Below are positions 10,449-31,390 of a stretch of DNA of 64,000 nucleotides, in pieces. The notes below the pieces were generated by a model. It ran no database searches, was not told where the DNA came from, and was given only the letters and a program-made list of their open reading frames with translations. Numbering within the stretch: the stretch's first letter is position 1; each line of letters starts with the position of its first letter. The stretch comes from an uncultured Eubacteriales bacterium (GTDB lineage: Bacteria; Bacillota_I; Bacilli_A; RFN20; JAISJY01): the NCBI GenBank assembly GCA_964646425.1, contig CAZYEI010000001.1, forward strand, positions 4,731 through 68,730, given 5' to 3'. Position numbers and translations under genes: made by a program.

Positions 10449-10463
10449 TCTAATTACAATTAT

Positions 10464-10492: not shown

Positions 10493-10604
10493 TGATTTAT
10501 CGTTTATTTTTTTATAAAAAATAGAAATATTTCTTAAAATAATTAATTTAAATGGAAATGTTTCCAAAATAAAAGAAGCAAGTTTCCTTACTTCTTTAAA
10601 AAAT

Positions 10605-13600
10605 TTATTTAATATATGCAATTATTTGGTCATAATAACCATCACGAACTTTTTTAGCAATATCACCTTTAACAACATTGACAGTTGTTTTAACATTGTC
10701 TTTAATTAATTCATAATGAGAAATACAATTATCATTATAAACATTTTTCGCCTTATTTACTTTATAAGTAACTAATGTTTTTCCTAATAATTTAAAAGAT
10801 ACTTCACCATCTTTAGTGAAAAATGAACTGTGAATATGTGGATTAAGCGCCAATTTTAATTCATTATCTTCCATAATAAACATATGCTTTCCTACCATCA
10901 TATACAACCAAATACTTAGCATTTCAGCAGTTGTTCCTGAAAGTCTAGCAACAAAACCTTGTCCGTGAGTTAGAGGATCAGGATTTGCACTTGAAGCTAT
11001 AAATGAAGAATGTTCCATTGGAGATCTACCATAAACCGCAGGATTCATAAAACATACCAGATTAGTCTTCATCGCTTCATGGAATTCTTTATATAATCCA
11101 GCCTTTAATAAACCAAGTAAATACTTATATGTCATATGCATAAAATTTGATTCTCTTTCAAGCCATCCTTTAGTAAAGGCTCTAATTCTACCAATTTCTT
11201 GAGTTTCACCATCTAAATCTGCACTTGTTTTATATGTTTTAAGTTTTTCATCATAAATATCTGATTCTTTGATAAGCTTATACATTTCTTTAAGTTCTTG
11301 TTTATCTTTAACAACTTTTAAGGCTCTTGCAGGCCCTTCTAAGAATTTAGGCAATTCTCTAATTTTAAATTCTTTAACCTTGACTAAATTATATCCTTTA
11401 TAACCTGTTTTAACATTACCATTTTCATCTTTGATTAACTCATAATCAGTAACATCATATGCAATAAAAGTAGGATAAATTCCATTTCCTAATTCTTTTG
11501 CTTTTTCAATTGCAGAATTTAATTTAAGTTGCATTTTCTTTAAAATATTAGCAAAAGAATCAGCAGAAATCTCAATTTCGCCAGTAGCACCTAAACGTAA
11601 TTTTTCACGATAATCTTCTCTAGCACTACATACTTCATCCCAATATTTAAAATCATTGTTATATGTATCTAAAGCATTTTCAACTTTCTTGATAAATAAT
11701 TGTAATTCATTTGTTATATATAATTTTCCATTTGGATATTTTTTTGTCATATCAACTAAGAAATTTACAATCTTTAATGTTTCAAATGTTTCACTTACAC
11801 CAGAAGCAAACAATCCAGGTAAGCCATTCATAGCATCATTCCAACCTGGTTTTCCTGCTTCCATTTCAATACCAATTCCTTTATTATCTAATAATGCAAA
11901 TTTGTTAAATGCCAAAGAAAATAATTTTGAATATAAGTTTGTATAAATAATTTCTTGATTATCATATTTCGCCCAGTTTGTAGTCCATTTATTAATATTA
12001 AATTTATTAATTTTTAAATCATCTTCATGATATAAAGAACCATATTGACGAATTTTTCCTGTTTTTGTTAAAACAGTCTTTGCACTTCGAGGTTGGACAA
12101 AAGCACAAGATTCATAATATTTATAATCTTTTTCTTCAAATAAAGCTCTTTCTTCTTCATCAGGATATACTGATAAAAAGTTATCAACTAAATCCATTAA
12201 ATAAGAAAAATGATCGACCCAGAATCCTTCACCAAATGAAGCTTCAATATTTTGAACTGATTCTCCTAAAATTTGAGATAAATACTCGTCTTCAGTTAAT
12301 TTAGTTTTAACACCATTGTTTTCAACTGTATTAACAATGCTACCTGGAGTAAAACTATTTGATAGCAATTTAGTCATTAGCTCATGATGACTAGCAAAAC
12401 ATGTATCTACAATTTTACTAACATCTGCATTATTTACTAAATTAAATGTTGTACCATTAATTCCTAATGGATTATAACCATCTTGTTGAATCAGTGAAAC
12501 AAAATATTTTAAATTATAATCTTTTACTTTAGGACAAATCAAAGAATCACTTCTTCTATTTTGACAAATGTCACGGAAATTTCCATTACCTTGAGAATAA
12601 TATTCCGGAGCAATTGAAAAGAAATTATAATCTCTCTCTAAATCTCCATGTCTTCTTGAATATAAATAATAAATATACTCTTTATCTTTTGCTTTAAAGG
12701 CAAAAGGATATCCTCCACGAAGTAAATTGTCTAAATATGTGTTCTTTAAATATTCATCAAAAATAGGGAATGCTGTATGTGTTTCAACATCGCTCATCAT
12801 AATTTCAATTACATCTTTTGCTTCTTTTTCTTTTTGATTTACATATTCATGCGAACATAAATGAGGCAAAATTGCATTAAATGCTTCTAATGAATGGCAA
12901 TTACCTATAATAGTATCAAGACGTTTAGTTTCACCAGATTTTAAACATAAAGTAACTGGGGTAAAACCACACAATACTTTATTTGTACAATATTGAGGTT
13001 CTGCTTTCAAAGCCTCAATACCTCCCTTTACAAATTTATCATTTATATTTGTATATGAATTATCATAGCCAAATACAACATATGGATCACAAATAGGTTT
13101 AATTAGTTTGTTGTCAACAAAAGACAAGTAAAAATTACCTTCATAAACTTCAGCAACTTCTTCAGAATCACCTGTTGATGCTCGTAATTTATAGAATGCA
13201 CAATCATTTTCAAGATTGAATACTCCCATCCAAGAACGAAGTAAATTAGACATTACTTTAAATGAACCGTGTTCAGTTCCAGGAGTAAATATTTGTGAAC
13301 ATCCATCCAATAAATCAATTTTTAAATCACTATTCGAAATATTTGTTACTTCAACTTTTCTTACTAAGCCAACAATCGGCTCATTTGGAAGACCAAAATA
13401 AGTAACATCAACTCGAATACCAAGTTTTTTATTTTCTTCACTTATTCTGAATTTTTCTCTACTAATATACATTGTTCTTTTAGCAGAATCATTTTTTACA
13501 CAAAATATTTCTTGTACTTTATTATTTATTTTTACAAAAGTTCTAAAACCAATTCTATTAATAACTTCATACGCAGTGTAAGCAGGGAAAAATTCAAGAA

Positions 13601-13781
13601 TGGCACCATTTTTGTCTCTAACACCAAAACTACTCATTCCTTGGCCTCTATTTACATAAAAAGACCAACCTGGTACTCCTTTCTTACCAGCAATCGCTGG
13701 TAAAAAACTAGAAAATGTTTTTTGTTTATCAAAATTTTCAATTACAAATTCACCATTTGAAAAATAATAATCTTTTTTCAC
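10605..13781 (-). CDS. Large intracellular protein, possibly a GH94/GH149/GH161-like glycoside phosphorylase such as a beta-1,3-glucan phosphorylase. The function is not established from sequence alone.
   Basis: The 1058-aa product has no signal peptide. It is the last gene of an operon with GH16 and CUT1 ABC transporter genes and lies 12 nt after the GH16 lipoprotein gene. Its size and context are typical of beta-1,3-glucan phosphorylases, but I could not verify a catalytic motif by eye. Confidence 0.35.
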   Translation of the reverse strand: MKKDYYFSNGEFVIENFDKQKTFSSFLPAIAGKKGVPGWSFYVNRGQGMSSFGVRDKNGAILEFFPAYTAYEVINRIGFRTFVKINNKVQEIFCVKNDSAKRTMYISREKFRISEENKKLGIRVDVTYFGLPNEPIVGLVRKVEVTNISNSDLKIDLLDGCSQIFTPGTEHGSFKVMSNLLRSWMGVFNLENDCAFYKLRASTGDSEEVAEVYEGNFYLSFVDNKLIKPICDPYVVFGYDNSYTNINDKFVKGGIEALKAEPQYCTNKVLCGFTPVTLCLKSGETKRLDTIIGNCHSLEAFNAILPHLCSHEYVNQKEKEAKDVIEIMMSDVETHTAFPIFDEYLKNTYLDNLLRGGYPFAFKAKDKEYIYYLYSRRHGDLERDYNFFSIAPEYYSQGNGNFRDICQNRRSDSLICPKVKDYNLKYFVSLIQQDGYNPLGINGTTFNLVNNADVSKIVDTCFASHHELMTKLLSNSFTPGSIVNTVENNGVKTKLTEDEYLSQILGESVQNIEASFGEGFWVDHFSYLMDLVDNFLSVYPDEEERALFEEKDYKYYESCAFVQPRSAKTVLTKTGKIRQYGSLYHEDDLKINKFNINKWTTNWAKYDNQEIIYTNLYSKLFSLAFNKFALLDNKGIGIEMEAGKPGWNDAMNGLPGLFASGVSETFETLKIVNFLVDMTKKYPNGKLYITNELQLFIKKVENALDTYNNDFKYWDEVCSAREDYREKLRLGATGEIEISADSFANILKKMQLKLNSAIEKAKELGNGIYPTFIAYDVTDYELIKDENGNVKTGYKGYNLVKVKEFKIRELPKFLEGPARALKVVKDKQELKEMYKLIKESDIYDEKLKTYKTSADLDGETQEIGRIRAFTKGWLERESNFMHMTYKYLLGLLKAGLYKEFHEAMKTNLVCFMNPAVYGRSPMEHSSFIASSANPDPLTHGQGFVARLSGTTAEMLSIWLYMMVGKHMFIMEDNELKLALNPHIHSSFFTKDGEVSFKLLGKTLVTYKVNKAKNVYNDNCISHYELIKDNVKTTVNVVKGDIAKKVRDGYYDQIIAYIK

Positions 13782-13793
13782 ACTTAATTCCTC

Positions 13794-14984
13794 CTATAAA
13801 GCAGAAATTTCTTCTGCTTGGTATACACGAACATAATCAATTACAAATTTGGGACCGATTCCATTTTCATCAAAAATAGAATCATCAATTCCTTGGGCAC
13901 CACCCCAATTACCACCCCACGCAAAATTAAGGATGATAAAGAATTCTTGATCAAATGGCCATGACTTATAATCTGGACAAGCCACATGGCTATTTGGATT
14001 ATATGTATAATATGGATTACCATCAACATAATAAATTATTTTATCTGGCAACCATTCGGTAGTATATGTATGATATGTATCATATATATCGCTCAATTTT
14101 GTAGAGCCACCTTTTTGTAAACCATTCCCCCCATTGAAACTAGCTGTATGGATAGTTCCATGAATTACATTTTCACTATAGCCAACGGTTTCCATAAAAT
14201 CAATTTCTCCAGTATCTGGCCAACTCTTTTTACCATAAACACCAGTGTTTGGCAATGCCCAAAAAGCCGGCCAAGTACCTTTTCCTCTAGGCATTTTAGC
14301 TCTTATTTCAAATTTACCATATTTATATTTGACTTTATTTCTAGTAATAAGTCTTGCAGAAGTATAACTTGAACCTTCATATTCTTCTTTTCTTAATGTA
14401 ATAGTCAAATTTCCATCTTCGACTTTAGCATTTTCTTCTCTATTTGTATAATATTGAAGTTCGTTATTTCCCCAACCCCAACTACCAGTACCAATCTCCG
14501 GTGTCCAATAATCACTTGTAGGAAATCCTTCATAATCAAATTCATCAGACCATACTAATTCATAATTCAAAGTATCATAATTATAATTAAAATTATTAGC
14601 TTTACAAGCACTTGTTCCCTTACCAATAATTACAAAATAATAACCAGTTGCAGTCAAGCCACCACTATCTTCAACTGTAAATGTAACTTTATATTTATTA
14701 TCAATATTTAAGGGGATTGAATCTACATAATTTTTATTATCATAATCATAAATAGTATATGTAATTTTATCAGTTAAATTTCCATCTTCAGTATCATAAG
14801 CAGTAACATTTAACATAACATTATATGTTCCTGAAGATTTAGACGGCATTCTATCAAATAGACCACTTAGTTGTGGAGCCGTATTATTTTCATTATTACT
14901 TGAAGATGTTCCATTTCCTTGACATCCAACAACAGAACAACTTAGCACAAATAACAATCCTAATATTTTTATTTTACGATTCAT
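13794..14984 (-). CDS. Secreted glycoside hydrolase family 16 lipoprotein (laminarinase) with an extra N-terminal beta-sandwich domain
   Basis: A lipobox is present (VLSCSVVGC). The GH16 motif GEIDFMETVGY occurs in the C-terminal domain. Confidence 0.8.
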   Translation of the reverse strand: MNRKIKILGLLFVLSCSVVGCQGNGTSSSNNENNTAPQLSGLFDRMPSKSSGTYNVMLNVTAYDTEDGNLTDKITYTIYDYDNKNYVDSIPLNIDNKYKVTFTVEDSGGLTATGYYFVIIGKGTSACKANNFNYNYDTLNYELVWSDEFDYEGFPTSDYWTPEIGTGSWGWGNNELQYYTNREENAKVEDGNLTITLRKEEYEGSSYTSARLITRNKVKYKYGKFEIRAKMPRGKGTWPAFWALPNTGVYGKKSWPDTGEIDFMETVGYSENVIHGTIHTASFNGGNGLQKGGSTKLSDIYDTYHTYTTEWLPDKIIYYVDGNPYYTYNPNSHVACPDYKSWPFDQEFFIILNFAWGGNWGGAQGIDDSIFDENGIGPKFVIDYVRVYQAEEISAL

Positions 14985-15001
14985 ATAATATTCAAACCTT
15001 T

Positions 15002-15991
15002 CTATTGTCCAGTTAATCCTGTTTGCTCGATACCTTCAACGAATTGTTTTTGAAGAACTGCATATAAAATTAACAATGGAATAATTGAGATTAAAGTTCC
15101 CGCCATTCTTTTTGCTTCGTTAACCATCTCTTTGTTTCCTTTATCAACACCACCAAGCAATGTATCAATGGCATTTAATTGATTTGGCAAAATTTGTAAG
15201 CCACCAGCTAAATAATATTGAGTTCCTAAAGTATCATTCCAATTCCAGACAAATGAAAACAAAAAGACAGTAATAATGATTGGAATTGATAATTTAAAGA
15301 TTACATGATAGAAAGTTTGGAAAGATGTCGCACCATCCATAATTGATGCTTCATCTAAGTCATAAGGAATTTGTTTAAAGAAACTATAACAAATTAAGAT
15401 TAAAATAGTTGAATAAACACCTTGTCCAAATAATGCTAATAATATTTGTGGAAGCACTGTTCCAATCAATTTAATTCCAAGTTTATCATAAATAGTTGTA
15501 AAAATCATTCGACGAGGAATAATTAACATTGGTGCCGGAATAATAAAGGCAGCAATTAATAACCCCCACCAAAACTTTGCCCCCTTAATTTTATATCTTG
15601 CTAAGGCATATCCAGCTAAAGCAGATATAATTGTTTGGATAAAAGCAAGTAAAAATGAGAACCAAACTGAATTAAGCAATGATGTTAAATAATCTAATGC
15701 AAGATAAGCTGCTTTATAATTAACAAATTGCCATTTCTTTGGTAATACTATTACTTCCGGATCAACTAAATCAGAACTTGATTGAAATGATGTGAAAAAC
15801 ATATCTAAAATCGGTTCTAAAAATACAAATGCAATAACAATTAACAATGCATAATAGACAAGCATTGGTAAAAATCCATCACGTAATCCATTACCAAATA
15901 AAAAATTCTTAATCTTTACCCAATTTATTTTCTTAAATTTTTCATATAATGCAACACCAGCATTTTTAATTTTAGTAACTAAATTTTTCAT
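15002..15991 (-). CDS. Carbohydrate ABC transporter permease (MalG/CUT1 family)
   Basis: Multiple TM segments and the EAA-loop motif EASIMDGATSFQTF are present. I moved the start to the ATG at 15991..15989 (MKNLVTK...), which has the Shine-Dalgarno sequence AAGGGGGG and lies 2 nt after the upstream stop. The longer ORF-track start at 16048 overlaps the upstream gene by 56 nt. Confidence 0.85.
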   Translation of the reverse strand: MKNLVTKIKNAGVALYEKFKKINWVKIKNFLFGNGLRDGFLPMLVYYALLIVIAFVFLEPILDMFFTSFQSSSDLVDPEVIVLPKKWQFVNYKAAYLALDYLTSLLNSVWFSFLLAFIQTIISALAGYALARYKIKGAKFWWGLLIAAFIIPAPMLIIPRRMIFTTIYDKLGIKLIGTVLPQILLALFGQGVYSTILILICYSFFKQIPYDLDEASIMDGATSFQTFYHVIFKLSIPIIITVFLFSFVWNWNDTLGTQYYLAGGLQILPNQLNAIDTLLGGVDKGNKEMVNEAKRMAGTLISIIPLLILYAVLQKQFVEGIEQTGLTGQ

Positions 15992-15992
15992 T

Positions 15993-17108
15993 TTAATTAC
16001 CCCCCTTAGAAACATCATCATGTTGCTTCTTAAATTTTTTATTTTCACGTTCTAATTTTTTTCTACGAAGTTCAACTTCCTCTTCATGATCAAGTTGAGC
16101 CCTTCTTAAAGCTTTCATTTGGCGTCTTTGTGAAGCTTGTACACTTCTTAATTTTTTATTTCTTGCTTCAGATTCTTTTCTACCCATATTTTGAGTATAA
16201 GTAATTACCTCTTTAACTTTCTTTTGTCTAGGAAGTAAAATCAAAGCAAATAAACCAATCATTAATAAAATAAAGATTGTCATAATAAAGGCCATTGCTG
16301 CAGCTAAACCTTCTTGATTTATTGTAGTAATCATATTGTTCATAATTGTATATAATTGACTAGTTGGCAAAGTAGCAACTTGTACAATTGAAAATACAGC
16401 AATAATCATAGCAGTAGAACGCACATTAGGAATAGTTATTTTCCATAAACATTGCCATGAAGTTGCTCCATCAATTTGAGCAGCAGCATACAAATCTTTA
16501 CTAATCTTTTGCAATGCATTAATAAATAAAACAATAGGAATACCTGTAAGCCACAAAATTACGACAAACTCATCAAATATTGATTGAACTGCATTAGCAA
16601 GTGGCATACTATAGGAAGAAATAATTCTAAAAAGAAATGAAGTTTGCTCAGGGCCTTCAATAATATTTCCTGTTGTTCCTGTAGTAGTTGATTCAAATAA
16701 CATAGTTATTAATGCACCAGACATAATAATAACAGGCATAAAATAAATAGTTCTAAAGAATCCTCTACCTTTAATATTTTTATTTAATATTATTGCTAAG
16801 ATAAAAGAGATAACTAAGATAATCGGAACATAAATAATTTCCGTTTTCATAAAATCTCCAATTGCTGTTAAAAATGAAACATTTTGTGTCAATGCATTAA
16901 CAAAATTCTTTAAACCATTAAAAGTAAAATGATAGCCATGCACATCATGTTTAACAGTTGAGAAACTCATAATGACAGCAATAATAAAAGGTATAAATGT
17001 TAAAAATACAGCACCTATAATCCATGGAGAAAGGAAAGAATATCCTAAAATATTCTTTCTTTTAGCATTTTCATTTTTAAATTTATATTTTTTTGTTTTT
17101 TCTCCCAT
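15993..17108 (-). CDS. Carbohydrate ABC transporter permease (MalF/CUT1 family) with an unusual ~85-aa Lys/Arg/Glu-rich C-terminal tail
   Basis: The EAA loop AAAQIDGATSWQCLWKITIPN is present. I moved the start to the ATG at 17108..17106 (MGEKTKK...), which has the Shine-Dalgarno sequence GAGGTG and lies 1 nt after the upstream stop. The tail RQKKVKEV...RRKKLERENKKFKKQ looks like a charged coiled coil. Confidence 0.85.
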   Translation of the reverse strand: MGEKTKKYKFKNENAKRKNILGYSFLSPWIIGAVFLTFIPFIIAVIMSFSTVKHDVHGYHFTFNGLKNFVNALTQNVSFLTAIGDFMKTEIIYVPIILVISFILAIILNKNIKGRGFFRTIYFMPVIIMSGALITMLFESTTTGTTGNIIEGPEQTSFLFRIISSYSMPLANAVQSIFDEFVVILWLTGIPIVLFINALQKISKDLYAAAQIDGATSWQCLWKITIPNVRSTAMIIAVFSIVQVATLPTSQLYTIMNNMITTINQEGLAAAMAFIMTIFILLMIGLFALILLPRQKKVKEVITYTQNMGRKESEARNKKLRSVQASQRRQMKALRRAQLDHEEEVELRRKKLERENKKFKKQHDDVSKGGN

Positions 17109-17109
17109 A

Positions 17110-19557
17110 TTATAACACCTCGAATCCTTGAGCTGAAACTTTTGTTTCACCATAAGTAAGAGGTGAATCACTATAGTTTATTACAATTTTCTTTCCATTA
17201 CTATATTCATTTACAATTAAACCATTTTCTAATTTTGTACGATTAATCCAATCTGCATTAATTACTTTTCCTAAAGCACTATCAACTTGTGTATAAATAT
17301 TCTTAATCATCTCTTTATATAATGAATATTCAGTTGAATAATAATTTGAACTATTAGTATATGATAAATAATGCGAAGATTCTTGGCTTAAAACAAATGA
17401 AGGATAAACATTAAAATCTATCATTTTTAAAATACTTTCTTGATCATAGAAACTAAAATTACTATATGGTGCATATAGTTCCATACAACCATTTAAAACT
17501 AATTGTAGTAGTGGGATTTCTGTTTCTTCAATTAAATGTTGACTATTAAATACCGGAATATTGAAATATCTATCAACATATTTCCATAAATATTTATTTG
17601 GTTGTTCAGCATTTACCATACCTTTTCCATCTAAATATTTAAAAGCATTTTCAATATTTTCCATTGCTTTTTCTCTAGTGCCTTTATTATTTGATAAAAC
17701 ACGATTTGAAATACCAGTTACAGTCATTGAATTAATATTAGTTTTTTTACTTAATTCCTTATTTTGTGACTTAACCCATTTTAGTGAAGCATCACTTCTT
17801 GCATAACCAAATTCATTAATAAAGTAATGATTAAATGAAGTATATTCAATATATTTTCCATTATAATGTTTTGTTGCATTACCACTGAAACTTATTTGAC
17901 TTTCATTAATTAAGAAATAATCTTGGGAGAATGAAACATCAACATTTTGTTTTTCCATACTTGAAATTAATGATTTATATTCACTAGCAGTTCCTATTTT
18001 ACTTGTAAAATCTGCTTTATCAGGTCGTCCCAAAGTAATTCCTCCACTTTGCCAACCTAAAAGAGAAGTAACAATGTTGTCAATTCCATTATTTAAAGAA
18101 TCGTTTAAAATTGCTTTTACATCATTTGCTGTTGTTACAACAGCATCACTTGTCCCAAGAACACTTTCTTCAGCATCAGCCATAATGAAGTCTAAACGAG
18201 TAATAATATGCTCATTTTCAAAATTTTTCTTTGTTAATTGTTTTTCTTCATTTATTAAATAATCACGATAAGCCTTAGCAACACCAACATAGTTAGCATT
18301 ATCTCCTTCTAAAAAATCATAACGCATACCAATATCATAATCAAATGGATTATCATTTAATACCGGTGCACTAGATGTGCCATCTTGAGAATAGTATTCA
18401 GTATAATCAAAATTTGTTCTAAATGTTGCATATGCATAAATATAACTATCATTATCCGCGTTATCCGGACTAACATTAATAGCCATATGTTGTTCACCTT
18501 TAGTTGCATAAGCTACAACAGCTTTTTGTGAATTAGTTGCAGTTTCATTATGAACAACACCAAACATTGGCATTGATGCATCTTTCAAAGGAACCGTTGT
18601 TCTTCCTGATTCTGGACTATAATGTTGTTTATTTGTAGTATAATTTTGACCATATACATATGACTTATATACGCCAAGAGTTACATTACTATCTACAAAT
18701 GGAATAATTGCACCTGAACCATCAGGAACAATTATATATCCTTTAGCCATTTCTTTACTTATTTTTGTCTTAGTATCATAATCACCATTTTCAACAAATG
18801 TCTTAATTGTTTCTCCAGTTTCCGGATCAGTTGAATCTGATTCAACTTTTTTTGAAACAAATGGGCTACCTTCTCCACCTGTTGCGCCAATAAATGGGGC
18901 TATTGTTATATCTATTAATCTGTTTTTATCTGCACCAGTAATTTCTTCGTGACGAAGTTCAAATTCAATGCCTTTTTCATCAAAATAAATATGAACAGAA
19001 AGATTAATATCAGCCCATACTCCAATTTGAAAATCTAAACGATAGTGAGTATCACTATTATCGATTTTCATTAAAGTAGACTTACCATATTTTGGATTTT
19101 CATGAGCACTTGAAACTTTAAATAAATTAGTCATTGCTTTATCATCTTTTTTATAAATATATGCAGTAACTAAAGAATTGATTATTGAGTTTCCTGTTGT
19201 ATCTTCATATAAATCACAAACATAATTTGGATCAGCATTCATTGCCTTTCGACATGCATCTCTTGCTTCTCTTTTTGTTTGATAAGGAACATCAGCTCCT
19301 GTTTTCCATAATATTTCTTTTGAATTAACATCTTGAATTTGAATAATATCTAATGATTCTTTATATGAATATATATATTTACTATTACGATATAATTCAA
19401 CATATGTATCTTCATCCTTTGAAGATATGGCAGTTTTGGCAATTTCTTTTGTTGAGTTGTTATTTGCTTCTTCATTTCCAGCAATATTAATCAATGAAGA
19501 TAAAGGAAGCAAAAATACAATTAGTGCTAAATACTTAATTTTTTTAACTAATGACAT
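17110..19557 (-). CDS. Secreted protein of unknown function (815 aa) encoded within the ABC transporter operon
   Basis: The signal peptide MSLVKKIKYLALIVFLLPLSSLINIAG follows a strong Shine-Dalgarno sequence, AAGGAGG, and the start overlaps the upstream gene by 14 nt. I recognise no catalytic motif. It may be a DUF-type glycan-processing or glycan-binding protein. Confidence 0.5.
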   Translation of the reverse strand: MSLVKKIKYLALIVFLLPLSSLINIAGNEEANNNSTKEIAKTAISSKDEDTYVELYRNSKYIYSYKESLDIIQIQDVNSKEILWKTGADVPYQTKREARDACRKAMNADPNYVCDLYEDTTGNSIINSLVTAYIYKKDDKAMTNLFKVSSAHENPKYGKSTLMKIDNSDTHYRLDFQIGVWADINLSVHIYFDEKGIEFELRHEEITGADKNRLIDITIAPFIGATGGEGSPFVSKKVESDSTDPETGETIKTFVENGDYDTKTKISKEMAKGYIIVPDGSGAIIPFVDSNVTLGVYKSYVYGQNYTTNKQHYSPESGRTTVPLKDASMPMFGVVHNETATNSQKAVVAYATKGEQHMAINVSPDNADNDSYIYAYATFRTNFDYTEYYSQDGTSSAPVLNDNPFDYDIGMRYDFLEGDNANYVGVAKAYRDYLINEEKQLTKKNFENEHIITRLDFIMADAEESVLGTSDAVVTTANDVKAILNDSLNNGIDNIVTSLLGWQSGGITLGRPDKADFTSKIGTASEYKSLISSMEKQNVDVSFSQDYFLINESQISFSGNATKHYNGKYIEYTSFNHYFINEFGYARSDASLKWVKSQNKELSKKTNINSMTVTGISNRVLSNNKGTREKAMENIENAFKYLDGKGMVNAEQPNKYLWKYVDRYFNIPVFNSQHLIEETEIPLLQLVLNGCMELYAPYSNFSFYDQESILKMIDFNVYPSFVLSQESSHYLSYTNSSNYYSTEYSLYKEMIKNIYTQVDSALGKVINADWINRTKLENGLIVNEYSNGKKIVINYSDSPLTYGETKVSAQGFEVL

Positions 19558-21658: not shown

Positions 21659-21659
21659 A

Positions 21660-22538
21660 TTATTTAATACCTGAATGAGCCATAGTATTCATAACTTTAC
21701 TTTGCATGAAAATAAAGATAATTAAATTTGGCACAAAGATAATAACAGACGCTGCAGCTTGCATACCGACCCCAATAATGCTATTTCCTGTAGTCGTCAT
21801 TGTTAATGTATTTAAGTAATAAGCAAATGTTTTTAGCGATTCTTCTTGAATGTATAAAGAAGAAGTTGAAGTATTATTCCAAACGCTTTGGAATGTTAAA
21901 ATACCTACCGTTGCAATCGCAGGTTTAATAATAGGAACAATTATCTTCCAGACAGTTTGGAAATCATTTGCACCATCTAACTTAGCTGATTCAATTAATT
22001 CATCTGGTGTTTGGTCCATAAATTGCTTAACTAAGAATAAACCAACTGGCATTGCAACAAGTGGAATTATATTTGCCCAGAAACTATTAATTAATCCAAT
22101 TTTACTAATAATAAAATAAGACGGAATTGAAAGAGCAGTACCAACAAACATAAGTGCAGTTTGATTTATAGAAACTAATTTACCACAAAATTTAAAATGC
22201 TTTTTTGATAAAGCATATGCTGCGAGCACTGTAATAACCCAGTTAATTAAAACCGTTAATACGGTAACGACAATTGAATTAAATAAATATCTAGACATTG
22301 GAATAAAGGTTGTTGAACCAGCCTTAAATAATCTTTTAAAATTATCTAATGTTGGATTTTGAACTAAAAACTTTGGTGGGAATGCAAATAATTCATCTAA
22401 AGGTTTTAGTGAGTGACAAAAAGTATATATTAAAGGTAAAATCATAAATGCTGCAATTGGAAGCAAGATTATATAAAATTTAATTTGGGATTTTGAAAAC
22501 TTTTTAGGGTTTATTGTGGATCCACTTAATTTTGCCAT
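21660..22538 (-). CDS. Carbohydrate ABC transporter permease (LplC/MalG-like, CUT1)
   Basis: The EAA loop ESAKLDGANDFQTVWKIIVPI is present, with 6 predicted TM segments. Confidence 0.85.
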   Translation of the reverse strand: MAKLSGSTINPKKFSKSQIKFYIILLPIAAFMILPLIYTFCHSLKPLDELFAFPPKFLVQNPTLDNFKRLFKAGSTTFIPMSRYLFNSIVVTVLTVLINWVITVLAAYALSKKHFKFCGKLVSINQTALMFVGTALSIPSYFIISKIGLINSFWANIIPLVAMPVGLFLVKQFMDQTPDELIESAKLDGANDFQTVWKIIVPIIKPAIATVGILTFQSVWNNTSTSSLYIQEESLKTFAYYLNTLTMTTTGNSIIGVGMQAAASVIIFVPNLIIFIFMQSKVMNTMAHSGIK

Positions 22539-22550
22539 ATACTACACCTC

Positions 22551-23522
22551 CTAATCCTTTTCACCAAATAGTTTATATGCAATTTTAGTAAAAATCATAA
22601 TAATTGCTAATAAAACTACTGATAATGCTGCTGCATAACCCATTTCATAACGTGCATAACCATAATCATCAATATGGTTAATAATCAATTGTGCTGAATA
22701 TTCAGGAGTTGGGTTTACTCCAGAAAGAGCAACACCTATACCTCCATTATTAAATGCACTGACAATTGCCATAACTGCTCCAAATAGCATTTGTGGTTTC
22801 ATGTTCGGAATTGTTACATACATAATTTCTTGAAATCTATTTTTTACGCCATCTATATGAGCTGCTTCATATTGTTCAGCATCAATATTAAGCATACCAG
22901 CTAATGTACTTAAAAAACCAACTCCCATTGAACTCCATAGAGCAACAACAATAACAATGGTCATTAAATACTTTGGATCTTGTAAAAATTGAATTGGCGT
23001 ATCTATTAATCCTAATTGCAATAAGATTGAATTTATATAACCACTTTGGTCACCTGAGAATAGTGTTTTCCAAATTACAGCCATAAATACACCACCAAGC
23101 ATACTTGGCAAATATAATATTAAAGCTAAAACTGTTCTAGGTTTATGTGGTAATTGAGCAAGCATCCATGCCAACATAAATGAAATTATATAACCACCAG
23201 GGCCAGTAATAATTGCATATTTAAATGTATTTGGCAATACATACTTTAAAAATATTTCATCTTGAGTTAATAAATAAATATAATTATCTAATCCACTAAA
23301 TTTTGGACTTTCAATAACGTTAAAAGAGGTAAATGAAAGACCGATTGCCACAGCAACTGGAATAGCAATGAATATACAGAAAAGTAATGCATAAGGTAAT
23401 AGCATAATAATGGTAGCACCCAAATCGCTAAATGTCATTCTTTTTAAGCGATTCCAAGCTGTATTTATGTAGCCACCTACACTCTTTCTTTCTTTAATTT
23501 CTTTTATTTTCTTTTCTTTCAT
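22551..23522 (-). CDS. Carbohydrate ABC transporter permease (LplB/MalF-like, CUT1)
   Basis: The EAA loop [22 protein letters not shown] is present. The N-terminal basic extension is typical of LplB-type permeases. Confidence 0.85.
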
Positions 23523-23524
23523 AA

Positions 23525-25153: not shown

Positions 25154-25177
25154 TAAAGTATCATAAGCTTTTAAATA

Positions 25178-26521
25178 TTATGAAGTTTCCGGAATATATT
25201 TTGTCAATTTCCAATCTTTATCCATATCAATATCATTTCCAGTAACTTTTAAAATTTCCAAGGCAAAATAATTTATATGATCAACAATTAATTGCAAATC
25301 GTTAATTAATGATGCCATATTTTCCATTTCAGCACGTAAAGTAATTTCATGTTTTCCAGCACTTAAATATACATAATATGGATTGCCATCATCATCTTGT
25401 AAATGGGTATTGCTCCATGTATTTCCAGTATGTGGGAATGAATAATTTTGTAACTCAGCAAATGGAATAACTCCATCTATATAGACACTTCTAAAAGCAT
25501 CATATTCATTTTTATCGTTAATATAATGGAATCCCAATTGATAATATCCGGCAACTTCTACCTCTACTTCATATGTTATACTTTGTCCGGCTTTTTGCCA
25601 TGATGTTCCAGAAATTACATTTAATTTTTTAATATCAGTTGAATATGGAGTAACATTTGGAGTTGACTCACTTTCTAATCTTACGTATGAAGAATTTTTT
25701 TCTATATATTCTGTTGCATTAATTTTGTAAAGAGATTTTTGTAAACTTTGTTCGCCATATTTTGCTTTTATTTCATTTTGATAATTAGCATAGGAAACAA
25801 TTTTTTGTGGGGACTTTGCTTTTAATTGTCCTAACGCTAAAACACCACTGCTCGAAATAGAATTAATTGTTATTTTATTTTCACCATTTTCTAAATAAAA
25901 AAGTAAAGGAGTAGATGATTTATATTGATTGTCATACATTTGTAATGACATCCATTCATCTATTCTAACACTTGATGGAATAGTCTCATCGCCATAAGAA
26001 TCTAAAGGAAAATCTTTTGTTGAATCTTGCCAGTATAAAGGAACATCAATTGTAGATGCTTCACTATATTGATATTTATCATTAATTTCAATTCCTATTG
26101 TTTGATTGGTTAAAACATTATCTCCTACAACTCGATAATCAACTTCAATCTCATATAATCCTGATGTTGGAATATCAACTAAATAGTCAACACTTTCACC
26201 ATATTCAATAGTATAGATATTTCCATTAGAATAGCCATAATTATTGTTCTCTTGATTAGTTTTTGAAGACATTGAAGCTATTTCACTATCCTTCAATGAA
26301 TAATTAATATCTTTTTCACCTAAAAAATCAACATATGTTGTTTCGTGTTTAAAACTACTCGTTTCAATAGATTTAACCAGTAAATCATATGCATTTTTTC
26401 TTTCTTCTTCATTTATATTAAAATCAGGAGCAGAACCACTATTTGCTATTACTACTACTCCAACGGATAATAGTGCAATTAAGGTAACAATCGACACTAC
26501 TCTTTTTGTTTTTCTTCTCAT
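25178..26521 (-). CDS. Membrane-anchored extracellular protein of unknown function. Its frame continues into the SBP-like ORF downstream. It may be the N-terminal half of a tethered SBP gene that is disrupted or read through.
   Basis: I placed the start at the ATG 26521..26519 (MRRKTKRVVSIVTLIALLSVGVVVIA), which has the Shine-Dalgarno sequence AAGGTGGGG. The ORF-track start at 26557 has no SD and lies inside a hairpin. After the single TM anchor the body is rich in beta strand. The ORF ends ...KYIPETS-TAA, then continues in frame with [13 protein letters not shown]... Confidence 0.5.
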   Translation of the reverse strand: MRRKTKRVVSIVTLIALLSVGVVVIANSGSAPDFNINEEERKNAYDLLVKSIETSSFKHETTYVDFLGEKDINYSLKDSEIASMSSKTNQENNNYGYSNGNIYTIEYGESVDYLVDIPTSGLYEIEVDYRVVGDNVLTNQTIGIEINDKYQYSEASTIDVPLYWQDSTKDFPLDSYGDETIPSSVRIDEWMSLQMYDNQYKSSTPLLFYLENGENKITINSISSSGVLALGQLKAKSPQKIVSYANYQNEIKAKYGEQSLQKSLYKINATEYIEKNSSYVRLESESTPNVTPYSTDIKKLNVISGTSWQKAGQSITYEVEVEVAGYYQLGFHYINDKNEYDAFRSVYIDGVIPFAELQNYSFPHTGNTWSNTHLQDDDGNPYYVYLSAGKHEITLRAEMENMASLINDLQLIVDHINYFALEILKVTGNDIDMDKDWKLTKYIPETS

Positions 26522-26560
26522 AATTAACCCCACCTTAATTAATTGTAAAGACTGCATAAG

Positions 26561-26587
26561 AGTAGGACAAAAAATGTCCTACTCTAT
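26561..26587 (-). other. Intercistronic stem-loop GAGUAGGACA-uuuu-UGUCCUACUC immediately downstream of the SBP gene
   Basis: A perfect 10-bp stem is visible, with no clear U-tract after it on the minus strand. It may act as a 3'-stabilising or processing element. Confidence 0.45.
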
Positions 26588-26610
26588 GTATCTTTTATTT
26601 AAAATATTAA

Positions 26611-28305
26611 TTAGAAATCAGACTCATTAAAGCCATAATAAGTAATCAATGATTGACGAATTAAACCAAATGCTTGCTCATAACGACCATTAATTACATC
26701 ATTATATTCGCTTAAGAACGCTGTATATGTGCTATACCAGTTCGGACTATCAATTGTAACACCTACAACATCTTCAACACCAAAGTTATCAATTTCATGT
26801 AAAATAGAAACTGTTTCTCCACCATCGTTCATATATTCTCTAGGGAATGCCTTATCTGAAACACCATAAATTTTTCCTTCTCCCCAAAGTCTAACAACTT
26901 CAGCAAATCCAGGGAATTTTTCAGCATCTGCAAATTCCATATGTCCAGGAGTAGATAACCAAATTTCCATTTGTTTATCATAATCATCACCCTTTGAAAT
27001 TAAAGGGAAAGATTGAGGAGTTGCATATGCATAAACATAATTACCATCATCATCTAATGTATCGGAATATTGTTGTTTACTTGCAGCTTCCCATGCATCT
27101 GTACTTGTTAGCCAGAAAGCAGTGAATGTATAGGCAATATCCATCTTCTTTAATTCAGCTTCACTACATGTATTGTTACCATCATCAGCACAATAGTTAT
27201 AAATAGAAATTGGATCTAAAACTACACCAACATGATTATCAACAATAACATCACCATTTGAATTTGTTAAAGCTGGACGAGGATAATAATCCCAATCATC
27301 TGATAATACTTCACTAGCTCCGCCTTCAGTATTTCCATAAACAAACATCCAAGGATGTTGATCAAGAGTTAGTAAACCACCTTTTGAGAAATAATAATAC
27401 TCATAATTGCCAAGTCTTGAAGTATAGTCTATAATTCCAGGATCAGTCCAATCTCCAGTAGCATTTTTAAAACTATATTGAGCTTGTTCAACAAGATTTG
27501 GAAGTGCTTGTTTAAAATCATCAGTAGCAAAATTTACATATGTTTCGCCACCTTCAAAATTTTGAAGTTGTGTTTCAATATATGCACCTTTTAGCATTGT
27601 CATACTAGCATCTAAGCTTCCATAATAAGAATAATCTACTTTATGTGAAACAAAGTCTGTGTAATCATCCCATGTCCAGTCAACATCTGGAGAAGCAATT
27701 TTTTGAGCTGTCGCTAATTCTCTATTTACATAAACTCCCCAAGGAATAGCATATTGAGGAAGCGCACCTTGGAATCCATAAAAATTACACATAGAAAGTA
27801 ATGATGGATTTAATTTCTTATATGCAGCATCATCTTTATATCTTGATAGATCTGCGATAATGCCTTGTTGCATATCATCATAAACATTTTTAGATAAGAA
27901 AATATCAGGATACGCTCCATTTGCAGCCTTATAATTTTCTAATTCAGCGCTCCAATCTTCCGGATCATCAGCTTTACTTGCTAAATTAATTTTAATATTT
28001 GGATATGTTTTATTAAATTCTTTAGCAATAGCATAAATCATTGCAGTATTAAATCCTGAAATTTCATTTGGTGCCCATTCAGCATGACCAATATCTTTAT
28101 GAGTTTGACCATCGCCAGCCCAAACCATAACAGTAATATCTCCACTTGTATTTTTATCAATTAAATCAGTTACTTGACCATTACCACCAGAAGCTGTATT
28201 ACTTGACTTATTTGGTTTTGAAGTATTACTGCCACCACACGCTGCAACTGACGTTAATAAAACTAATGAAGCAAGTAGAGTACTAAATTTATTAAATTTT
28301 TTCAT
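26611..28305 (-). CDS. Extracellular solute-binding lipoprotein (family 1, CUT1 oligosaccharide-binding)
   Basis: I placed the start at the ATG 28305..28303 (MKKFNKFSTLLASLVLLTSVAACGG, a lipobox), which has the Shine-Dalgarno sequence GGAGG 8 nt upstream. The ORF-track start at 28335 has no SD. An S/N/G-rich linker is followed by an SBP fold. Confidence 0.85.
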   Translation of the reverse strand: MKKFNKFSTLLASLVLLTSVAACGGSNTSKPNKSSNTASGGNGQVTDLIDKNTSGDITVMVWAGDGQTHKDIGHAEWAPNEISGFNTAMIYAIAKEFNKTYPNIKINLASKADDPEDWSAELENYKAANGAYPDIFLSKNVYDDMQQGIIADLSRYKDDAAYKKLNPSLLSMCNFYGFQGALPQYAIPWGVYVNRELATAQKIASPDVDWTWDDYTDFVSHKVDYSYYGSLDASMTMLKGAYIETQLQNFEGGETYVNFATDDFKQALPNLVEQAQYSFKNATGDWTDPGIIDYTSRLGNYEYYYFSKGGLLTLDQHPWMFVYGNTEGGASEVLSDDWDYYPRPALTNSNGDVIVDNHVGVVLDPISIYNYCADDGNNTCSEAELKKMDIAYTFTAFWLTSTDAWEAASKQQYSDTLDDDGNYVYAYATPQSFPLISKGDDYDKQMEIWLSTPGHMEFADAEKFPGFAEVVRLWGEGKIYGVSDKAFPREYMNDGGETVSILHEIDNFGVEDVVGVTIDSPNWYSTYTAFLSEYNDVINGRYEQAFGLIRQSLITYYGFNESDF

Positions 28306-28338
28306 TATTTTGCCTCCTATTTTACTAATTATCAATTC

Positions 28339-28368
28339 AAAGGTAACAACACTAAAGTTGTTACCTTT
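28339..28368. other. Perfect hairpin AAAGGTAACAAC-actaaa-GTTGTTACCTTT between the lipoprotein gene and the SBP gene
   Basis: A 12-bp stem is present. T-rich sequence follows it only on the plus strand. On the minus-strand operon transcript it would act as an intercistronic stability or processing structure rather than a terminator. Confidence 0.5.
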
Positions 28369-28378
28369 ATTTTTATTA

Positions 28379-30049
28379 TTAATTTTGAACTAATTTAACA
28401 TCCTTAATATAGAAAGTAATATCATCTGCTAATAAACCAAGTTCAATTGTTACCTTATTAACGCTATCGATTTCAGCAGCATTAATATTCAATGTAATAG
28501 TTTGGAAATCATTAGATGCAGATATTTCTGTTTCAGCATATGAAGTATAAGGATTTTGATTTTGAATAAAGGCAACCTTCATAGCGATACTTGTTTTAAT
28601 TTTGAATGTTAATGTATAAGAAAGTCCACCAATACATGGTAAATTATTCATATTTATTTGGTTAACATATGATTGTTCCCCTTTTCCTAAAGTATGAATT
28701 TTTACAGAGCCGTCTGTTTCATCGCTAAATGATTGTGTAATCCATGTTTCACACCATGAATCTTCTTTAAATTTAGCAGCATTATATGTTGGTAATAAGT
28801 TTGAACCAGCAGCAACAACAGTAATTGTACGTGAATCAGTAGTCTTATTTCCAGCAGCATCTTTTACTTCATAATTAACAGTATATGTTCCTGCTTTTGA
28901 AACATCTAATGTTGTAATTTCATTTCCATTATATGTTGCCTTAATATTAGCAGTTACATCACCATCAATATTATCACTAGCTGTTATTCCATGTAAAACG
29001 TTAAACTTTGTTGAAGATTCAGAAATTTTAATATTATTCATTCCACTAAATGAAGGTGCAGTTTCATCGACAACAGTGCCATCAAAAACGCCAACATAAA
29101 CATCTGTAAACCATAAAGTTGTCATTACATCTGCAGTTGGAGCAACTTTACCCATACTAAACAAGATTGAGCAACCATCTAATGTTGCATGAGTTGCAGT
29201 AAATGTATATTCAAATTCTTGCCAAGTAGAAGTAACTTCTGCAGTATAGATTTGTTGATCAGAAGTAAATCCTTCATACCAAGGAGATGCAGGCATTAAT
29301 TGACCAATAGAAACTTCGACGTATTTTGTAGTTAATGCTTTTGCTTTAAATGATACTTTATAATTTTGGCCACCAGTCATAGTAAAGCGCATATCTTCGC
29401 CACTGCCATTAGTTGCGTATGTTGCTGAGTTTAACCTTGGAGAAGATGCATTTGTCCAGTTTAATCCAGTCATAACAACTTTAGCAGCATTTTTGTTTTC
29501 TCCCATTACATCAGTTTTTTCAACTGAGAATTCGCCAGTACCACCTTCATGAGTAGCTAATTCCCAATCTTTTGTTCCTAGTTCAAAATTTGCATTTGAA
29601 ACTAGATTTCCAGCAGTAACAGTAGCTTCTATGATTTCAACATTTCTAGTAGCAGTTTCAGTTATTTCAACTCCACCAGTTTTAAAAGTTACTGAATAAT
29701 CAATTTTACAAGTACGAATTTCACTTGTATCAAGTAATTTTCCATTCAATGTACAATTAGATGTAGCGGTAGTTCTTGTCTTTAATTCAATACCAGTAGA
29801 AGTTAAAACACTAACTCCATCAAATACATTATAAGAGCTATGTTGTACAGCTTCACTTTCAACGCCAGAGAAATCATAAGCAATTGTTACTCCAGGGTTA
29901 ACATTAGTAGATTGTGAAGTACTTGGTGTGATAGACGGTGTTGATGTGCTTGATGAATTTGAAGTGGGTTTTGATGTATTATTTCCACCACAAGCAGCAA
30001 GAGCACATAACATCAATGTGGCAAGACTTGCCGTAAATATTTTTTTCAT
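28379..30049 (-). CDS. Surface lipoprotein with a DUF5011-type Ig-like domain and a CBM4_9-like carbohydrate-binding domain
   Basis: A lipobox is present (LMLCALAACGG). The segment ITASDNIDGDVTANIKATYNGNEITTLDVSKAGTYTVNYEVKDAAGNKTTDSRTITVV is a textbook DUF5011 pattern. The NANFELGTKDWE motif resembles the start of a CBM_4_9 domain. Confidence 0.6.
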   Translation of the reverse strand: MKKIFTASLATLMLCALAACGGNNTSKPTSNSSSTSTPSITPSTSQSTNVNPGVTIAYDFSGVESEAVQHSSYNVFDGVSVLTSTGIELKTRTTATSNCTLNGKLLDTSEIRTCKIDYSVTFKTGGVEITETATRNVEIIEATVTAGNLVSNANFELGTKDWELATHEGGTGEFSVEKTDVMGENKNAAKVVMTGLNWTNASSPRLNSATYATNGSGEDMRFTMTGGQNYKVSFKAKALTTKYVEVSIGQLMPASPWYEGFTSDQQIYTAEVTSTWQEFEYTFTATHATLDGCSILFSMGKVAPTADVMTTLWFTDVYVGVFDGTVVDETAPSFSGMNNIKISESSTKFNVLHGITASDNIDGDVTANIKATYNGNEITTLDVSKAGTYTVNYEVKDAAGNKTTDSRTITVVAAGSNLLPTYNAAKFKEDSWCETWITQSFSDETDGSVKIHTLGKGEQSYVNQINMNNLPCIGGLSYTLTFKIKTSIAMKVAFIQNQNPYTSYAETEISASNDFQTITLNINAAEIDSVNKVTIELGLLADDITFYIKDVKLVQN

Positions 30050-30073
30050 TTTATTATTTTCCTCCCTTTGTAA

Positions 30074-30085
30074 GAAATCGATTTC
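30074..30085. promoter_or_regulatory. Perfect 12-bp palindrome GAAATCGATTTC (cre/LacI-type operator candidate) in the 5'UTR of the lipoprotein/ABC operon, just upstream of its RBS
   Basis: The 12-mer is its own reverse complement and has a central CG. The same core occurs at 10437 and 10478 before the other surface lipoprotein gene. Confidence 0.45.
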
Positions 30086-30157
30086 GATATAATTGAATAA
30101 AAAAATACGCTACTTAATATTTTTTTATCTATTATTCAAAATATTTTTTACATTAAT

Positions 30158-30186
30158 ATTATATTAAATATTGTAAGCGGTGTCAA
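30158..30186 (-). promoter_or_regulatory. Consensus sigma-A promoter (TTGACA-17-TATAAT) for the polysaccharide-utilisation operon
   Basis: On the minus strand, TTGACA (30186..30181), a 17-nt spacer and TATAAT (30163..30158) form the promoter. It implies a 5'UTR of about 100 nt that contains the palindrome. Confidence 0.55.
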
Positions 30187-30339: not shown

Positions 30340-30355
30340 AAATTAGGTGATTTTT

Positions 30356-31388: not shown

Positions 31389-31390
31389 TA

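Follow-up and report, generated by a model that had tools for sequence, protein, structure and literature searches.

A conserved eight-gene double-importer cassette in a probable laminarin-type beta-1,3-glucan utilization locus of an uncultured low-GC Bacilli member

We analysed a 64,000-nucleotide stretch of DNA from an uncultured Eubacteriales bacterium (contig CAZYEI010000001.1, positions 4,731 to 68,730; hereafter the window), whose G+C content is ∼28% throughout and whose Ffh protein has its nearest named relatives, at ∼60% identity, among Erysipelotrichaceae, Erysipelotrichales, and Bacilli metagenome-assembled genomes. The minus strand carries 12 open reading frames (ORFs) at 10605-30049, all co-directional, which we number G1 to G12 from the promoter downwards, and a separate downstream unit (D1-D4) follows with its own promoter-like site and two operator-like palindromes (Table 1). 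Taken as a whole, this is best explained, in our judgement with good confidence, as a laminarin-type beta-1,3-glucan utilization locus, i.e. a Gram-positive polysaccharide utilization locus (gpPUL), of an uncultured low-GC member of the Bacilli. New here are a large solute-binding protein (SBP) gene split by a nonsense codon, a fixed eight-gene cassette, and the placing of DUF5696 as a membrane-anchored remote homologue of glycoside hydrolase (GH) family GH129. A preceding sequence-only reading of this DNA had called the arrangement unusually elaborate; it proves instead to be a widespread fixed cassette that is not peculiar to this genome, and the window locus itself, apart from slight damage, is unexceptional for a common type of locus.

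The consensus promoter that the earlier reading had placed upstream of G1 is present and has no equal in its surroundings (Table 1), while weaker promoter-like matches (88 observed, against 87.9 expected from shuffled sequence) carry no weight. At the far end, the hairpin with its T-run stands directly 3' of the last stop codon and is the sole minus-strand terminator-like site within 5500-20500; the other such sites on that strand, 23111-23092 and 22265-22252, lie inside G5 and G6, and the total count of terminator-like sites is within the range of shuffles. We computed gaps from start codons backed by a Shine-Dalgarno sequence and by agreement with the gene lengths of relatives. They are 73 nt for G1-G2, 89 nt for G2-G3, 2 nt for G4-G5, 12 nt for G5-G6, 1 nt for G6-G7, −14 nt (an overlap) for G7-G8, 1 nt for both G8-G9 and G9-G10, 17 nt for G10-G11, and 12 nt for G11-G12. 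The tight packing and translational coupling described earlier are borne out, most gaps being −14 to 17 nt, whereas the limit of 53 nt once given for the gaps holds for maximal ORFs and fails for the two Shine-Dalgarno-backed starts that leave 73 and 89 nt. The stretch has the sequence features of a single operon: the 12/12 promoter upstream, the terminal hairpin with T-run, and intergenic hairpins that lack one. On the strength of the promoter, the terminator, and the coupled junctions, and with the qualification that two conserved internal stem-loops bring (see below), G1 to G12 most likely form one operon of 11 genes transcribed from one strong promoter.

Table 1. Genes and sequence elements of the locus, in order of transcription (coordinates are those of the window)
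Feature	Coordinates	Strand	Basis
Sigma-70 promoter, TTGACA-17-TATAAT	30158..30186	−	Sole 12/12 match in 20000-33000
Palindrome GAAATCGATTTC (12 bp, perfect) of the 5' leader, ending ∼25 nt ahead of G1's start		30074..30085		Probable LacI/CcpA-family operator
G1, 556-aa surface lipoprotein, lipobox LAAC, PF16403 (former DUF5011) Ig-like domain	28379..30049	−	Pfam E 1e-11
Stem-loop, G1-G2 gap	28339..28368	−	13 bp as folded (12 pairs in scan), no T-run; −16.5 kcal/mol, z −4.2
G2, 564-aa lipoprotein, CUT1-type SBP	26611..28305	−	ATG 28305 with GGAGG Shine-Dalgarno sequence
Stem-loop, G2-G3 gap	26559..26585	−	11-bp core, no clear T-run; −25 kcal/mol, z −5.6
G3+G4, ∼998-aa membrane-tethered binding protein gene with in-frame TAA	23525..26521	−	Shared frame, no second Shine-Dalgarno sequence, fused relatives
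Premature stop TAA within G3+G4	25178..25180	−	CAA (Gln) in closest relatives
G5, MalF-type ABC permease, first pair	22551..23522	−	BPD_transp_1; EAA loop EAAHIDG; 25% identical to G9
G6, MalG-type ABC permease, first pair	21660..22538	−	BPD_transp_1; EAA loop ESAKLDG; 24% identical to G10
G7, 704-aa NHL/TPR/Yip1 membrane protein	19544..21658	−	Pfam Yip1 2.4e-10, NHL, TPR; hydrophobic segments
G8, 815-aa DUF5696 protein, N-terminal transmembrane anchor, GH129-like ectodomain	17110..19557	−	Pfam DUF5696 E 6.8e-131
G9, MalF-type ABC permease, second pair, 371 aa, charged C-terminal tail	15993..17108	−	BPD_transp_1
G10, MalG-type ABC permease, second pair, 329 aa	15002..15991	−	BPD_transp_1
G11, GH16 endo-beta-1,3-glucanase (laminarinase) lipoprotein	13794..14984	−	PF00722 2e-26; motif EIDFME
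G12, predicted cytoplasmic GH161 beta-1,3-glucan phosphorylase, 1058 aa	10605..13781	−	PDB 9qqk, 9h8v
Terminator-like hairpin with T-run, operon end	10572..10597	−	−12.7 kcal/mol, z −4.05
Downstream unit: promoter-like TTGAAA-17-TATATT with TG, two operator-like palindromes (10479-10490, 10437-10448)	10437..10492	−	Sequence
D1, 968-aa surface lipoprotein, aBig_2 repeats, C-terminal F5/8 type C (CBM32-like) domain	7511..10417	−	Pfam
D2, 255-aa GH16 without signal peptide (cytoplasmic)	6695..7462	−	PF00722 2.1e-24; 39% identical to G11; EIDLME
D3, LacI-family transcription regulator	5566..6576	−	LacI helix-turn-helix, Peripla_BP_1/3
D4, GH5 lipoprotein, candidate exo-beta-1,3-glucanase	4162..5553	−	PF00150 4.7e-27

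The gene order and domains of the sequence-only reading agree with the Pfam matches save in one place: the ORFs at 25178-26557 and 23525-25153, which it had listed as an anchored protein and an SBP-like ORF, are not separate genes but one interrupted gene, G3+G4, so that its 12 genes become 11. The two ORFs are in the same frame with a single TAA between them, and the second has neither a Shine-Dalgarno sequence nor a signal peptide. All of the full-length relatives (59 of 59) have G3+G4 as a single ORF of 960-1061 aa, and the alignment passes the TAA smoothly into a conserved YL.AY motif. In the closest relative, L083 (two metagenome contigs with DNA 87.5% identical over 14.5 kb; L-numbers denote loci of relatives), the large binding protein is intact at 998 aa, 94% identical in protein, with CAA (Gln) at the position of the stop. 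The shared frame, the missing Shine-Dalgarno sequence and signal peptide, and the fusion in all relatives led us to reject both a pair of genes and reinitiation at ATG 25153. As aligned, the truncation is explained by a single C-to-T change or by a base-call error. The full protein comprises a transmembrane anchor, a weak CBM35-like region, and a C-terminal SBP_bac_1/8 domain (G4 matches PF13416 and PF01547 in Pfam); truncation after residue 447 leaves the membrane anchor and the weakly CBM35-like N-terminal half, and loses the SBP domain, whose intact L083 counterpart is nearest to the Listeria oligosaccharide SBP Lin1841 (5ysb, 2.4e-12). Provided that the base call is correct, this genome probably has a defect in one of its two uptake routes.

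The second SBP gene is G2. It has no Pfam match itself, matches PDB 22hh (SBP family 1) at 2e-7, and has an L083 orthologue (88-91%-type) with a precomputed PF01547 match. The locus thus encodes two SBPs, where only one clear SBP had been claimed, and the G4 Pfam matches, the G2 orthologue, and the match of G2 to 22hh provide the extracellular SBP_bac_1/8-type protein that defines a CUT1 importer. The first gene of the array, G1, aligns as DNA in the 87.5%-identical L083, and BLASTP finds it in just one (L036) of the loci compared; by this comparison we take it to be a lineage-specific addition to the cassette.

The two CUT1 permease pairs reported earlier are confirmed by BPD_transp_1 matches in G5, G6, G9, and G10, and the translations of all four contain the EAA-type coupling loops expected of CUT1 membrane subunits. 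Counterparts of the two pairs are merely 24-25% identical, and the duplication is therefore ancient. The G9 start, ATG 17108, lies 1 nt past the G8 stop and gives a length equal to that of the 371-aa L083 gene; likewise, the G10 start, ATG 15991, lies 1 nt past the G9 stop behind a GGGGGG Shine-Dalgarno sequence, and its length equals that of the 329-aa L085 gene. The C-terminus of G9 (15993-16230, minus strand) is a ∼75-aa tail rich in Lys, Arg, and Glu; in L060, L069, L072, and L088 the G9 gene is ∼500-990 aa, so that this subunit carries a variable extra domain.

CUT1 importers can share an MsmK/MsmX-type ATPase, and a locus without an ATPase gene is usual for the family. A tblastn search with an MsmK-type query from a related locus found no ATPase of this type in the 64-kb window, in line with the earlier statement that the locus has none; the matches reach 23-29% identity and fall in two exporter-like genes (52144-55780), within their nucleotide-binding domains. 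The accompanying suggestion of an ATPase encoded elsewhere fits the window, and it fits the relatives, since 8 of 50 related loci have an MsmK-type gene near the cassette. It also fits the published GH161 loci, most of which lack nucleotide-binding genes according to PMC6484121.

To place the locus among relatives, we scanned one genome per species (185,579 species genomes) with a pattern from a DUF5696 alignment, using a closer set of homologues as the first alignment was too divergent for a pattern scan. This gave 229 confirmed stretches, of which the best 80 were analysed; synteny was assessed by searching every ORF of the relatives' loci by BLASTP with the proteins of the window. None of the analysed stretches is above 42% identity, and the window's species is therefore not among them. 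The order is fixed: a G2-type SBP (∼550 aa), a fused G3+G4 (∼1000 aa), G5, G6, G7, G8, G9, and G10. This eight-gene core is complete and colinear in at least 50 loci (genomes) of several Bacillota orders, with carriers in the Haloplasmataceae, Izemoplasmatales, Acholeplasmataceae, Erysipelotrichaceae, Lachnospiraceae, Eubacterium, Defluviitaleaceae, and others, and with Haloplasma contractile, Eubacterium segne, and E. album as cultured carriers. Around the constant core, accessory enzymes differ in presence and order among the 50 loci, where the neighbours are GH16 (43 loci), LacI (31), GH161 (27), GH3 (20), GH30 (16), GH5 (11), GH94 (11), and the MsmK-type ATPase mentioned above. The overlap of G7 with G8 has a median of −14 nt across the 50 loci, the value found in the window.

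Five distant DUF5696 genes (22-31% identity; L087 from Pseudalkalibacillus sp. Hm43, L088, L089, L090, and L091) stand in the same run of large SBP, permease, permease, NHL/Yip1 protein, DUF5696 protein, permease, and permease. In L090, gene calling gives the NHL part and a short ORF downstream of it as two genes, with no Yip1 match recorded, and the small SBP-type gene is found upstream in some of the five loci only. Beside the run stand, depending on the locus, GH35/42-type enzymes together with a GFO/MocA oxidoreductase and AraC, beta-helix proteins, or no carbohydrate-active enzyme at all. As the core is kept beside non-glucan enzymes, the cassette is a general module of which the beta-1,3-glucan loci form one large clade. 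In five loci of Erysipelotrichaceae type (L007, L010, L015, L016, and L032), ∼1.5 kb separates the large SBP gene from the G2-type SBP match upstream of it; between the two lies an ORF from a cluster that a GH4-like sequence of L032 represents.

Between the two permease pairs, G7 and G8 keep a constant slot in the 50 complete loci and in the five distant ones. An AlphaFold2 model of G7 (pLDDT 81.9) has an N-terminal helix, an outward six-bladed NHL propeller, TPR helices, a long transmembrane helix, a cytoplasmic helical segment, and a C-terminal multi-pass Yip1 domain; Foldseek ranks NHL domains and PknD's extracellular sensor domain as its best matches. The G8 model (pLDDT 84.5, pTM 0.86) has a transmembrane helix at the N-terminus, beta-sandwich domains, a barrel of (beta/alpha)8 type, and a beta domain at the C-terminus; a multi-domain fold built on a (beta/alpha)8 barrel is shared with GH129. 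A single-sequence search with G8 returned no GH129 match, whereas a profile search with the DUF5696 family reaches GH129 at E 6.6e-5 over ∼130 aligned profile positions. From profile and predicted fold we place DUF5696 as a remote GH129 homologue, and do not file G8 as a GH129 enzyme. Compared with the GH129 structures of NagBb (5wzn) and a Zobellia 3,6-anhydro-D-galactosidase (5opq), G8 is 13-15% identical and differs in its N-terminal membrane anchor; residues that differ between the deposited NagBb sequences 5wzn and 5wzq, which we take to be those mutated in 5wzq, align with non-identical residues of the DUF5696 profile. Many acidic residues are invariant within the beta-glucan clade of DUF5696. 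The family is large, with 6284 clusters at 50% identity (E ≤ 1e-3) or 3888 (E ≤ 1e-30), and we found no mention of it in the literature searched.

The enzymes point to beta-1,3-glucan. G12 matches PDB 9qqk (GH161A) at 3.5e-215 over residues 9-1048, i.e. its full length, and 9h8v at 1.3e-214, with no Pfam match. By this homology it is a GH161 beta-1,3-glucan phosphorylase; assignment to GH149 was rejected (91.5 bits with the NCBIfam GH149 model against a cut-off of 1150), as was GH94 (E-value 0.93 with a GH94 laminaribiose phosphorylase). Enzymes of family GH161 phosphorolyse beta-1,3-gluco-oligosaccharides with a degree of polymerization of 3 or more, according to PMC6484121. The best solved match of G11 is the laminarinase 3iln (5e-79), other top matches being beta-1,3-glucanases, and the catalytic motif E-x-D-x-x-E is present in both G11 and D2. 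For D4, the solved matches are led by PDB 9ku5 (7.6e-25), followed by 8z2w, glucan 1,3-beta-glucosidase A (2.3e-21). Pfam upholds the second GH16, the GH5, and the LacI regulator named in the sequence-only reading, and the laminarin-type substrate it had proposed agrees with G12, G11, and the GH16 and GH161 neighbours in relatives; our case for beta-1,3-glucan rests on the homology of G12, G11, D2, D3, and D4 and on the neighbours in related loci, not on motifs alone. In L085 the D1 homologue comes after GH161. The NCBIfam models added nothing for G1-G4, G7, G8, and D1.

Both promoters of the locus carry palindromes. The sequence GAAANCGNTTTC has three perfect matches in the 64 kb (30074-30085, 10479-10490, and 10437-10448), all of them at the two promoters; allowing at most one mismatch there are seven matches against 2.15 expected, a count reached in 1 of 100 shuffles. 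We regard these palindromes as probable LacI/CcpA-family operators. The longer form TGAAAGCGATTTCA fits what we take to be the cre (CcpA) consensus, and catabolite repression may act on the locus besides the local LacI. At 10478-10491 TGAAAGCGATTTCA overlaps the −35 element of the downstream promoter; the corresponding gap of L085 (about 19010-19030) contains TGAAAGCGTTTACA.

The two longest gaps of the main array, G1-G2 and G2-G3, each contain a stable stem-loop. The position of the G1-G2 hairpin is shared with L083 and L085, and since its sequence differs in L085, this argues for selection on structure. The G2-G3 stem-loop is conserved in L083 and L085; among wider relatives, the gap 3' of the G2-type gene folds with a minimum free energy of −10 kcal/mol or lower and z ≤ −2 in 42 of 48, and most of these structures lack a U-rich tail. 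Neither gap contains a minus-strand promoter-like site of 10/12 or better; the 10/12 sites on the minus strand of this stretch lie in coding sequence, in a number equal to chance. Stem-loop elements of this kind are a common device in binding-protein-dependent transport operons. Those after G1 and G2 probably tune expression and do not break the operon; we read them as 3'-end stabilizers or leaky attenuators that would raise the levels of G1 and G2 relative to the membrane subunits, which qualifies the single operon and does not overturn it.

The locus resembles several described systems without coinciding with any. Within the literature searched (on DUF5696, on Yip1 in sugar transport, and a review from 2026 that covers glycoside transporters), we found no description of the cassette beyond one partial account, that of the GH161 and GH94 clusters of Acholeplasma laidlawii PG-8A (Kuhaudomlarp et al. 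2019, PMC6484121). As excerpted, that article describes one cluster of GH161, two permeases, GH16, and GH3 in which an SBP is missing, adjoining a GH94 cluster that has one, and proposes that the 'SBP-less' GH161 cluster borrows the binding protein of its neighbour. The likeness to the window is that GH161 stands beside a GH16 laminarinase and two ABC permeases while an ATPase gene is absent; the excerpts treat the region as two neighbouring clusters, and make no mention of Yip1, DUF5696, the large tethered SBP, or the eight-gene order. By analogy with related Acholeplasmataceae genomes, in which the full cassette is followed by GH16 and GH161, the A. laidlawii clusters would belong to the cassette. 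[quoted passage not shown] The window has all three, namely the enzymes G11, D2, and D4, two SBP genes with four permeases, and the regulator D3, and thus resembles the published gpPULs in its enzymes, ABC carbohydrate transport, and LacI-type regulation; where a typical gpPUL has one SBP and one permease pair, the window has two of each together with two conserved membrane proteins. In the same work, one strain that failed to grow on inulin is reported to have a transporter gene with a C-to-T nonsense change (PMC5320581).

Like CUT1 importers in general, the window has SBP_bac_1/8 proteins, MalF/MalG-type permeases with EAA loops, and no ATPase gene; it departs from them in that its two divergent permease pairs are interleaved with the Yip1 and glycosidase-like proteins, and in that one SBP is ∼1000 aa and anchored by a transmembrane segment. 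For Yip1 there is a precedent in YknW, a Yip1-family accessory subunit that modulates assembly of the Bacillus ABC transporter YknWXYZ (PMC4887032). In both cases a Yip1-domain protein is encoded with an ABC transporter, that of G7 lying inside the transporter gene set, whereas YknWXYZ is an exporter of the MacB type that includes a membrane fusion protein, and YknW lacks the propeller and TPR ectodomain of G7. The glycosidase-like heavy chain 4F2hc/CD98hc of LAT1-type amino-acid transporters is comparable to G8 by analogy only, the generic barrel fold being shared with no specific homology, and its partner is an SLC7 carrier where that of G8 would be an ABC importer. The beta-1,3-glucan loci of Bacteroides, which encode surface glycan-binding proteins and GH16 (PMC7157763), follow the same plan of surface capture, endo-GH16 cleavage at the surface, oligosaccharide import, and breakdown inside; they employ SusC/SusD outer-membrane transport and hydrolases, in contrast to the ABC import across a single membrane and the cytoplasmic phosphorylase of the window.

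We propose that the glucan would be held at the membrane by G1 and D1, surface lipoproteins with Ig-like or CBM-like domains, and by the tethered large binding protein, and would be cut into oligosaccharides by the GH16 lipoprotein G11 and probably by the GH5 lipoprotein D4. G2 and G3+G4 would hand these to G5/G6 and G9/G10, which form two separate permease heterodimers. The EAA coupling loop retained in each of the four permeases suggests that they are powered by a shared MsmK-type ATPase encoded elsewhere. In the cytoplasm, the GH161 enzyme G12 would free glucose-1-phosphate from chains of at least three residues, while the GH16 enzyme D2 may cut longer or branched imports. The LacI-family repressor, CcpA, or both would bind the GAAANCGNTTTC palindromes at both promoters, and the stem-loops after G1 and G2 would raise the transcript amount for those surface proteins. 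G8 may serve as a glycosidase-like ectodomain that binds or trims glycan above the translocators, and G7 as a membrane scaffold.

Several observations weigh against parts of this account. The solved structure that D4 matches best carries the annotation of a putative beta-xylosidase, and the window has no GH1, GH3, or GH94 enzyme to finish laminaribiose, whereas these are present beside the cassette in many relatives. The D4 match, the GH30 genes beside 16 of 50 related loci, and the beta-1,3(4)-glucanases (7wwc) among the closest solved GH16 enzymes would suit a locus for another beta-glucan, either mixed-linkage glucan/lichenan or beta-1,6-glucan. We consider such a target very improbable, as laminarinases head the GH16 matches, relatives have GH94 and GH17-like neighbours that suggest beta-1,3 linkages, and G12 matches at 1e-215 a family, GH161, that is known solely for beta-1,3-glucan phosphorylases (PMC6484121). 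The internal stem-loops also speak against a simple operon, both being more stable than the final terminator (−16.5 and −25 against −12.7 kcal/mol), and they could halt a large share of transcripts. Their stability, their conserved position, and their place in the only long gaps might even indicate real terminators, with G1, G2, and G3-G12 as separate transcription units. Yet neither hairpin has a T-run behind it, the tails in relatives are mostly U-poor, and a G3-G12 unit would have no recognizable promoter of its own for want of any minus-strand site of at least 10/12 in either gap; we therefore hold separate units to be unlikely, and retain the single operon with modulating stem-loops. The premature stop is a further point of doubt, in that the system is perhaps not fully functional in this organism, unless the base is an assembly error.

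The invariant position of G7 and G8, their conserved overlap, and the YknW precedent incline us slightly towards viewing them as fixed accessory subunits of the transport assembly, although fixed gene order is circumstantial evidence for contact with the permeases. We advance a bolder version tentatively, as possible but doubtful: the cassette would encode an undescribed Bacillota ABC-importer supercomplex, the single-membrane counterpart of the Bacteroidetes utilisome, in which the Yip1 scaffold with its outward propeller and the GH129-like type-II membrane protein join two translocators and feed them glycan fragments, the module being re-used for other polysaccharides by exchange of the neighbouring enzymes. 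The alternative is that no supercomplex exists, that G8 is a free-standing membrane-anchored surface glycoside hydrolase (e.g. debranching or exo-acting), that G7 is an unrelated sensor or adhesin, and that the permease pairs are two independent ABC importers, each with its own SBP. Two binding proteins and two complete permease pairs are indeed present, the propeller of G7 is similar to PknD's extracellular sensor domain, and in the barrel region of the beta-glucan clade D456, D461, D540, E693, D714, and E743 are invariant. Across the whole family, however, D279 (in the motif PDGSG) is the sole invariant acidic residue and D408 is nearly so. To our knowledge, the characterized GH129 enzymes are alpha-glycosidases acting on alpha-linked substrates, which leaves no obvious bond for G8 in the beta-glucan that this locus handles; this tells both against a free-standing hydrolase and against a trimming role within an importer. 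Enzymes of the GH16, GH161, GH3, GH30, GH5, and GH94 families vary in presence and order, whereas G7 and G8 are fixed in the 50 complete and five distant loci with their start-stop overlap conserved, and we rate independent importers with a free-standing G8 as rather unlikely.

Laminarin and the glucans of yeast and fungi are beta-1,3-glucans, which provide a major source of carbon both in the sea and in gut environments; glucan uptake by bacteria without an outer membrane is poorly known. What is noteworthy is the locus type, a rigid eight-gene double-importer cassette that is common, is re-used beside other enzyme sets, and includes two unstudied membrane proteins; the window itself is a typical member in which a point mutation has probably cost one binding protein its function. 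Should G7 and G8 be transporter subunits, they would define a new architecture for ABC sugar import and offer a route to understanding glycan import in the Bacillota, and the cultured carriers make the cassette directly testable.

Elsewhere in the window, none of the 40 complete ORFs of at least 200 aa ends in TGA (32 end in TAA and 8 in TAG). This prompted us to consider an alternative genetic code, which we rejected as table 4 merges no genes; TGA is apparently avoided as a stop and is not a sense codon. At the upstream end of the locus, a divergent gene for a PAP2-family membrane phosphatase (30347-31069, plus strand) borders the promoter region, with AsnRS (31391-32788) next. A 527-aa protein at 38925-40508 (minus strand), with BspA-type leucine-rich repeats and a Listeria-Bacteroides repeat, is probably a surface protein. 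At 59219-63509 (minus strand), two [FeFe]-hydrogenase-like genes (Fe_hyd_lg_C and Fe-S domains), one of them encoding a 560-aa protein with an additional 'FeS' domain, flank a SpoIIE/PP2C-type phosphatase gene (60659-61834), an order that presumably resembles a sensory-hydrogenase arrangement.

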